Shown: positions 24,346-26,093 of the stretch, one piece after another
How the letters are laid out: each line of letters opens with the position of its first letter
Position numbering within the stretch: position 1 is the stretch's first letter
Assembly: GCA_964016885.1 (NCBI GenBank)
Contig: OZ024744.1
Span: 71,672,001-71,736,000 of the forward strand
DNA length: 64,000 nt
Direction of reading: 5' to 3'
DNA from: Eledone cirrhosa
Lineage: Eukaryota
Translations under genes and position numbers: made by a program
The notes under the pieces: model-generated
Seen by the model: only the letters and a program-made list of their open reading frames with translations
Database searches by the model: none
Told to the model about the DNA's origin: nothing

Positions 24346-24612
24346 CACACACACACACACACACACACACATATATATATATATATATATATATATATAT
24401 ATATATATATATATATATATATATATATATATATATATATATAAAGAATTAATATCTAGTAACATCTATATACATACAGATGCATGTCAATGCTAGCAAA
24501 TATATAGGTTTTGTCTTAGTAACTTTGTGGTTCAATGCATGGGGTTGCAGAACAATAATATGAGAGACGTAAAATAAGAAAATTATAAAATTAACTTACT
24601 TACTAAAATTTC

Positions 24613-24694
24613 ACTCCCAACTAATTAGTTTCTGAAATGGAATAAATATACTTTCCGAAGAAAATATAGAGAAGCATTTCGTCGTCAGGGAAGT
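24613..24694 (-). ncRNA. Hammerhead ribozyme, family I
   Basis: ACTTCC-CTGACGA-c-GAAATG...CATTTC-a-GAAAC-TAATTA-GTT-GGGAGT with palindromic ACTAATTAGT stem III. Confidence 0.85.
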
Positions 24695-25349
24695 CTATTC
24701 TCAGCTAAGTATCCAGGCAAAGCGTGGTCTCTGGAAACTTATACAAAAATAATTCAGTGGATAGAAAATAGCAACGCGTGGACTGAATTCCTAGCCATTG
24801 AGAAAATCACTGCCTACTGCGTCGGTGGCAAATTCAAAAAGAATCAATCACGTGACATCGAGGTCAATCAGTGGAAAGTGGTTTGTTAAGAAGACAGCGG
24901 CCTGCCTGCTACCATAGCAGCAGTCTTGGCCAATATTGCTCGACAAATAATTTGGAGATAATTATAAAGAATTAATATCTAGTAACATATATATATACAT
25001 ACAGATGCATATCAATGCTAGCAAATATATAGGTTTTGTCTTAGTAACTTTGTGGTTCAATGCATGGGGTTGCAGAACAATAATATGAGAGACGTAAAAT
25101 AAGAAAATTATAAAATTAACTTACTTACTAAAATTTCACTCCCAACTAATTAGTTTCTTAGTAACTTTGTGGTTCAATGCAAGGGGAGGCAGTACAATTA
25201 TATGAAACACGTAAAATAAGAAAATTATAGTAATTAGCTTACTTAGTTAAATTTCACTCCAACTAATTAGTTCCTGAAAGGGAATATACATGTAGAACAT
25301 GTATAAGTTCCCTGTGTCCACGCATCGCCAGGTATCTTAGCTGAGAATG

Positions 25350-25421
25350 ACTCCCTGATGACGAAAAGGTTTCTCCATGTTCTACATGTATATTCCCTTT
25401 CAGAAATTAATTAGTTGGAGT
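25350..25421 (+). ncRNA. Hammerhead ribozyme, family I subfamily 2 (next copy 25866-25937)
   Basis: ACTCC-CTGATGA-c-GAAAAGG...CCCTTTC-a-GAAAT-TAATTA-GTT-GGAGT. Confidence 0.85.
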
Positions 25422-26093
25422 GAAATTTAAGTAAGTAAGCTAATTACTATAATTTTCTTATTTTACGTTTTTCATATAATTGTTCTGCATCCCCTTGCAT
25501 TGAATCACAAAGTTACTAAGACAAAACCTACATATTTGCTTGCATAGGTATACATCTGTATATATATGTTGGTAGATATACTAATTCTTTATAATTATCT
25601 CATTATTTTGTTGAGAAAAAATTTGCCAAAATTACTATTATAGTTCATAGTAACAGCTTGGCTACTGTCTTTTTAACACCCCACTCCTCACTGATTAACC
25701 TCGATGTCACGTGATTGATTCTTTTGAATTTGCCACCGAACAAGAAGGCAGTGACTGTTTCAGTGACCTGGAATTTAGTCCCCGCTTGCTCTCTTCCATC
25801 CACTGAATATATTTTTGTATAAGTTCCCTGTGTCCACGCATCGCCAGGTATCTTAGCTGAGAATGACACCCTGATGACGAAAAGGTTTCTCCATCTTTTA
25901 CATGTATATTCCCTTTCAGAAACTAATTAGTCGGAGTGAAATTTAAGTAAGTAAGCTAATTACTATAATTTTCTTATTTTACGTTTTTCATATATATATA
26001 TATATATATATATATATATATATATATATATATATATATATATATATATATATATATATATATATATATATATATATATATATATATATATAT

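Follow-up and report, generated by a model that had tools for sequence, protein, structure and literature searches.

A non-coding hammerhead repeat of Eledone cirrhosa with two fixed, paired ends, likely mobilised by Penelope-like elements

Results

Two insertions of the repeat unit in the window

The window, that is the whole stretch of 64,000 nt that was analysed, contains two insertions of a repeat unit of ~520 nt, at 24443-25994 (locus A) and 41761-42795 (locus B), each flanked by (TA)n. The unit is non-coding, carries one predicted type I hammerhead motif and is present at thousands of genomic sites; no further copies beyond loci A and B were revealed by self-comparison of the 64,000-nt window. 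Positions within the unit are counted from the predicted cleavage site, +1, which corresponds to 25417, 25933, 42212 and 42735 of the window. The features are as follows.

Locus A
24371..24443, (TA)n tract, left target
24443..25158, minus strand, subfamily-1 arm of 1.37 units with site B (about +177 to +181) as its 3' end
24613..24694, minus strand, the only fully intact one of the unit's five complete hammerhead motifs, type I, predicted cut after GUU at 24619/24618
25156..25301, minus strand, inverted subfamily-2 piece reaching from +105 back into the preceding unit (+476)
25300..25994, plus strand, subfamily-2 arm of 1.35 units, 3' end at site A (+62)
25417-25932, plus strand, monomer of 516 nt within the subfamily-2 arm
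25350..25421, plus strand, hammerhead motif carrying C>T in stem III; cleavage predicted at 25416/25417
25866..25937, plus strand, hammerhead motif with a stem I mismatch and a GUC site, predicted cut 25932/25933
25478..25593, plus strand, one internal copy of the ~120-nt 'tail' between A (+62) and B (+177)
25990..26093, (TA)n tract, right target

Locus B
41719..41763, (TA)n tract, left target
41761..42183, minus strand, inverted arm running from end B (+181) back to +282 in the preceding unit
about 41936-42018, minus strand, hammerhead motif of the inverted arm, mutated core CTGGCGA
42184..42795, plus strand, forward arm, from +496 through one full unit to end A (+61)
42212-42734, plus strand, monomer of 523 nt
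42658-42740, plus strand, hammerhead motif of the forward arm, mutated core CGGACGA
42791..42887, (TA)n tract, right target

Elsewhere in the window
48696-51900, plus strand, decayed copy of a young 4,202-bp Penelope-like element (PLE)

In locus B the minus arm lies head-to-head with the plus arm. In locus A the subfamily-1 minus arm and the inverted subfamily-2 piece, which meet at 25156-25158 with a 3-nt microhomology and no TA tract, lie head-to-head with the subfamily-2 plus arm. Locus A is a composite in that subfamilies ~78% alike are joined, yet it has one B end and one A end, which suggests that two RNAs took part in one reaction.

Self-comparison confirmed the periods of 523 and 516 nt given in a preliminary description of this DNA. 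The offset of 523 was found at 24440/24963 (98% over 196 nt, including a 2-nt indel) and at 42184/42707 (100% over 89 nt), and that of 516 at 25300/25816 (97% over 179 nt). The copies in the window belong to two diverged subfamilies, as described earlier, which are 75-81% alike, and the unit is indeed ORF-less, the longest ATG frame in a natural two-unit stretch being 77 codons. The sequence AATTCTTTAT(A/T)ATTATCTC, formerly taken for a junction between units, proved to be conserved internal sequence at end B (+177 to +184). The insertions had also been thought to end at differing points of the unit; only two sites are used, 24443 and 41761-41765 corresponding to B and ~25990-25994 and 42792-42795 to A.

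Natural monomers of the unit were 516-571 nt long and 68-100% alike, the youngest being ~99% alike. The exact hammerhead-core pattern had 10,294 matches in the 3.0-Gb genome and the reversed control none. Head-to-tail repetition ranged from dimers to multimers of up to 17 units, most loci being dispersed insertions of 1-3 units in which the 3' ends are fixed, the 5' ends vary and inversions occur. The retrozyme family is real, abundant and recently active, and judged by sequence the repeat, which neither codes for protein nor has LTR features, falls within the definition of animal non-LTR retrozymes. The array of 17 units (L021, G000:C2:226738900-226747700) has a single stem II haplotype. Its units are mostly 5-9% apart, and near-identical pairs with 1-2 differences, the product of local duplication, are found three or four units away from each other.

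The hammerhead motif

The motif consists, in order, of stem I (5-6 bp), CUGAYGA, C, a 6-bp stem II, an internal loop with a second helix, A, GAAA, a palindromic stem III of 2 bp (ACUAAUUAGU), GUU and stem I. The intact motif at 24613..24694 has ACUUCC/GGGAGU as stem I, CUGACGA, a C.A base and long bulged stem II, GAAA and the palindromic stem III. The motif occurs once per period as first described, but only one of the five complete motifs in the window is fully intact, a disabling-looking change being present in the other four. No hammerhead was returned by an Rfam search of the window, either at the gathering threshold or at E<=10, and a single degenerate hammerhead folded alone was not better than shuffles (z +0.87).

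Across 18 diverse copies 94.7% of the stem cells were paired and 37 had changed on both sides, counts that are inflated by relatedness and come from a search pattern that itself fixed the core and stem III. None of 500 shuffles reached this covariation, and pairing fell to 31-48% with slid partners. In a core-independent sample of 60 loci the core was intact in 70 of 79 spans and the base of stem II was C.A in 67, about 8 of the 79 being mis-anchored by one base. Position 2 of stem II in this sample was CG in 24 spans, GC in 17, UA in 16 and AU in 13, that is, all four Watson-Crick pairs. These comparisons indicate that the predicted hammerhead fold is conserved and that stem II covaries strongly. 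Covariation had previously been assigned to stem I, in which copies differed only by an indel of one base pair matched on the two sides and by G-U wobble, without any two-sided change of a pair. A pattern with the same stem III and a short stem II gave 30 matches (control, 1), which by eye are deletion derivatives of the retrozyme family. Because the hammerhead variant escapes Rfam in the window, the number of such families is probably underestimated.

A short palindromic stem III is reported to result in slow, dimer-dependent cleavage (PMC6765202; PMC7229834 on axolotl), and the short, palindromic stem III of the unit would imply the same.

Position +473 of the unit (window 42684), at the base of the outer stem II helix, was T in 27, A in 19, C in 10 and G in 5 copies of a subfamily otherwise 0.7% diverged; one guess for this four-letter variability is an RT error hot spot at a modified base. 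A second variable stretch spans +479 to +484 of subfamily 2. A-to-I editing as the source of the unit differences is not supported, as these are of all types.

The near-identical pairs three or four units apart in the 17-unit array, together with local one-unit duplications at two other loci (L023 and L061), are what would be expected of a satellite-like repeat that spreads mainly by duplication at the DNA level and carries an inherited hammerhead without current use. Against this stand the covarying hammerhead stems and the make-up of most loci, which are scattered insertions of 1-3 units showing fixed 3' ends, 5' ends of varying position, and inversions. This explanation is very improbable and is already disfavoured as the main route.

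Ends of the insertions

The ends of 110 arms were determined at 63 loci, which were the first hammerhead matches on contig C1. The 3' end was at +58 to +65 (end A) in 46 arms, at +172 to +195 (end B) in 49 and elsewhere in 15, with the 5' ends scattered along the unit. A TA or CT repeat run follows 93 of the 95 A or B ends. The unit had been described as inserted in circular permutations, a view which could not be retained with 95 of the 110 sampled arms ending at two fixed sites, one of each per pair. Among 40 head-to-head pairs, 28 were A/B, one was A/A and none was B/B, another end being involved in 11 (binomial p 1e-7). When 90 loci were picked by end A, an inverted partner arm was present in 66, ending at B in 58, at A in 1 and elsewhere in 7, and 24 had no partner. 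The 60 new loci among the 90 gave the same picture, the partner arm ending at B in 40, at A in 1 and elsewhere in 5 and being absent in 14. Across the genome, 3,702 exact end-A sites pass into (TA)n and 6,639 read through, both counts having been obtained with strict patterns and consequently being lower bounds. Both end sites (+61 and about +180) are UA-rich, and the ~120-nt 'tail' between the A and B ends is present on one arm only. Copies stop at two fixed positions, one per mirror-image arm, which makes a randomly opened circle unlikely; the two fixed, paired ends point instead to a likely parasite of PLEs.

Penelope-like elements of the same genome

Insertions of PLEs are reported to be partially tandem, in many cases accompanied by a 5'-truncated copy in inverted orientation, to be biased towards microsatellites and to have a tail of 30-40 bp at one end (PMC8557442, PMC3846280), located on one of the inverted pLTRs (PMC3846280). 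The purified anole PLE protein was reported to cleave and extend both target strands and to begin reverse transcription at two internal RNA sites delimiting the tail, independent of hammerhead cleavage (PMC11167929).

A young autonomous PLE of the same genome was used as a positive control. The element is intact, with a period of 4,202 bp, and encodes an RT/GIY-YIG protein of 768-775 codons with RVT_1 and GIY-YIG domains; dozens of near-identical intact copies contain the 775-codon frame, for example G000:C1:147237137-147241338 (L366/L367). An upstream frame has 452 codons, the first 339 residues being without a Pfam match. From the Cys linker criterion we take the element to be Neptune-like. 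Its two ends lie 61 nt apart in (TA)n, and among the 15 places examined A/B pairing was found in 11 of 11 clean head-to-head insertions; one of the remaining places was cut by the edge of the stretch, one had another end and two had one end only. Since the young PLE has the same A/B pairing, the ends of the retrozyme are equated with the PLE 'tail' signature. The young PLE further resembles the unit in having a hammerhead-like motif with a palindromic stem III and a similar order of motifs in its terminal repeat, whereas it differs in encoding the RT/GIY-YIG protein and the 452-codon frame, in its tail of 61 nt and in having no detectable homology to the unit.

A PLE ORF joined to the unit was not found recurrently in 260 fetched loci, overlapping and estimated to represent ~220 distinct places, which were queried with 13 PLE frames of the window and 8 database proteins. 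At six places in these loci a same-strand PLE coding match was present <=700 nt upstream of a unit: four were separated from it by a TA tract, one (L280) by the PLE's own 3' end, and one (L028) was a single, non-recurring case. No PLE coding sequence is joined to the copies in the window, in agreement with the earlier statement that RT and endonuclease sequences are not attached to them. Homology to the unit was likewise not found in the 3' regions of 7 PLE ORFs of the window, in 30 loci of one PLE family or in 75 loci around the N-terminal parts of three PLE families. Comparison of the unit with the pLTR of the young PLE gave no nhmmer match, the best local match being a TA-rich stretch of 25 nt. 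Unit matches in L325, L354 and L359 looked like separate insertions. The family is non-autonomous as far as sampled, and the young PLE is a candidate partner by architecture alone.

The preliminary description had named, as the case contrary to its own reading, a unit that is the ordinary pLTR of an autonomous PLE; a recurrent unit-ORF junction was not encountered in the sampled loci. In a related explanation the unit is a mere pLTR of an autonomous PLE whose copies seldom bear the ORF, those observed having arisen by truncation. The insertion architecture does resemble that of a pLTR, as does the layout, comprising CCAAT/CACGTG-like motifs, a TATA-like motif, the hammerhead, an invariant GTAAGT donor-like motif and two ends, and the sample covers no more than a few per cent of the family. 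However, what lies upstream of a unit is another unit, up to 17 in succession; five of the only six places with an upstream PLE match are explained and the sixth, L028, is single; and the ORF-less subfamilies have diverged to ~70% with compensatory changes. We regard this explanation as improbable.

The donor-like sequence GTAAGTAAG is invariant in the region +16 to +51 of the unit (window 42227-42262) and is predicted to pair with CTTATTTTAC immediately before end A. The pairing is a candidate for a protein-binding or initiation hairpin, or for an intron remnant.

Template of the insertions

Rare variants were common to the units of one insertion at 1.39 per kb versus 0.02 per kb between loci in 26 subfamily-1 loci, and at 3.59 versus 0.35 per kb in 35 subfamily-2 loci, both samples having been picked by likeness to the copies in the window. 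This sharing indicates that each insertion came from one close lineage, as is predicted by a circle or by a homogeneous source array. Twin arms shared 2.46 and 1.76 variants per kb at the same index, not clearly more than neighbours.

At sites covered by at least three segments, 6 variants were present in all covering segments. Another 14 were common across arms and absent from the tandem neighbour, of which 11 in 7 loci were kept after 3 had been dropped for a doubtful short overlap in L014. A further 13 were in one arm only, and the 10 in L023 and 2 in L061 look like local one-unit duplication. The across-arm variants imply either that the units of the template differed or that the inverted arms later underwent conversion, which could mimic the pattern. 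The corresponding triad test in subfamily 3 had no informative site. Neighbouring units differed at +473 in 12 of 25 pairs, counted by hand, versus a background of 0.7%.

Of the 90 end-A arms, 77 read across the first cleavage site. The 5' stops were in excess at +1 to +30, with 9 of 31 versus 54 of 822 window-exposures (p 2e-4) and, in a second set, 14 of 81 versus 29 of 557 (p 3e-4), a three- to four-fold enrichment. The excess would fit a small share of templates having their start at the predicted cut; it could also arise from AT-rich microhomology or structure.

The classical scheme for retrozymes, in which double self-cleavage yields a ligated monomer circle around which the RT of a PLE rolls from the same two start sites, agrees with several of these results. 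Rare variants are common within an insertion 10-70 times more than between loci, 6 are found in all covering segments, most cDNAs cross the cleavage site cleanly and the monomer folds stably (z -4.7, 0 of 100 shuffles); moreover, circles are reported for coral, mussel and axolotl retrozymes (PMC7229834). The scheme is at odds with the 11 variants in 7 loci that are common across arms and absent from the tandem neighbour, and with the excess of stops at +1 to +30, for which a circle has no 5' end. The differences at +473 also speak against a circle, although a per-pass error hot spot could explain them. On balance we consider the scheme rather unlikely. For at least some insertions we favour templates that were probably, for the most part, uncut linear multimers with partial cleavage, circles being possible. 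The earlier proposal of a circular or multimeric RNA template therefore stands as worded, with the genomic evidence favouring a linear multimer in at least a portion of the insertions.

Discussion

Tandem units with hammerheads, the lack of an ORF and the paired ends in (TA)n support the initial proposal of a retrozyme-like, non-autonomous, PLE-mobilised repeat. We consider it probable that the unit is a non-LTR retrozyme with insertions that end at two fixed sites in (TA)n, a PLE endonuclease/RT likely copying it in trans with one cDNA per site. In the proposed mechanism a tandem array would be transcribed into a multi-unit RNA, and the PLE protein would nick both strands of a (TA)n tract. 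The two target 3' ends would then prime at the UA-rich sites +61 and about +180, and both cDNAs would run upstream for variable lengths, usually through uncut hammerheads. Joining of the cDNA ends by microhomology would leave two head-to-head arms, of which a single one carries the 120-nt tail, and a very short second cDNA would give a single-arm insertion. The hammerhead, with its palindromic stem III of 2 bp, would cut slowly and probably as a dimer, leaving most templates uncut and a minority starting at the cut site. Unit number may be restored by template jumps, circles or local duplication.

We propose more tentatively, and with slightly less than even confidence, that the PLE 'tail' is the footprint of twin initiation, in which two cDNAs start simultaneously, one at each of two fixed sites and on opposite target strands, and that the family spreads mainly from uncut linear multimers with the bulged-stem-II hammerhead and any circles as side products. 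If this is true, the family would constitute an in vivo record of both twin initiation and spread from multimers that is thousands of copies deep. The re-entry of retrozymes into the genome has been proposed only, and the formation of the PLE tail and of head-to-head arms is partly known. An ORF-less unit of 520 nt that shows every part of the PLE insertion signature, its A and B ends being paired almost strictly one to one, may be useful for testing the origin of retrozymes and of PLE tails. With the young PLE as the source of a candidate enzyme, it would serve as a minimal cis-acting RNA and allow clear predictions to be made for an in vitro assay.

The unit shares with EN+ PLEs the head-to-head arms, the two 3' ends with a one-arm tail and the (TA)n targets (PMC8557442, PMC3846280, PMC11167929), in addition to a type I hammerhead with a short palindromic stem III and read-through of the hammerhead. 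It differs in the lack of an ORF and in a tail of ~120 nt versus the 30-40 bp reported for PLEs. In the in vitro study RT was described to start at RNA that is non-homologous to the cut DNA and at sites equal on both strands (PMC11167929), whereas here both sites are UA-rich and the arms differ.

The animal non-LTR retrozymes described previously (Cervera and de la Pena 2020, PMC7229834; Li, Clavereau and Pollet 2026) are likewise non-coding, low-GC tandem repeats that carry one type I hammerhead in every unit, reach thousands of copies and co-occur with PLEs. The Eledone cirrhosa unit, at 516-571 nt, is large as first suggested when compared with the 170-400 nt given for monomers of invertebrate retrozymes (PMC7229834). 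It is not large when compared with the preprint's consensus lengths of 51-972 bp for retrozymes derived from PLE pLTRs, molluscs not being among them (bioRxiv 10.64898/2026.07.22.740005). The present unit, known from its sequence, is distinguished by a bulged stem II of ~48 nt with a C.A base that is missed by Rfam. Fixed paired ends are not described in the accessible text of the 2020 paper or of the 2026 preprint, the latter containing neither 'tail' nor 'mollus'. No report of a cephalopod retrozyme was found in a literature search that lay outside most subscription journals; for the giant squid genome 235 Rfam hammerhead matches are listed (PMC6962438). The family would add an unusual variant of the hammerhead and, through its paired ends, a record of mobilisation by PLEs.

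Other elements in the window

The best named matches of a neighbouring PLE protein were from Argonauta and Octopus (61-62%), followed by oysters (50-56%). Two other PLE families with hammerhead motifs of their own are present at 9366-9790, 22221-22800 and 35650-36114; they end in (TA)n or (CA)n and are unrelated to the unit. Fragments of a further PLE family with inverted repeats, at 1874-3288 and 38960-41410, are presumably Hydra-like by motif, and the 3' end of this family often adjoins the unit in shared TA tracts. Tandem repeats were detected at 11192-12169 (period 419, 2.3 copies, 98%) and at 61284-61683 (period 204, 2 copies).
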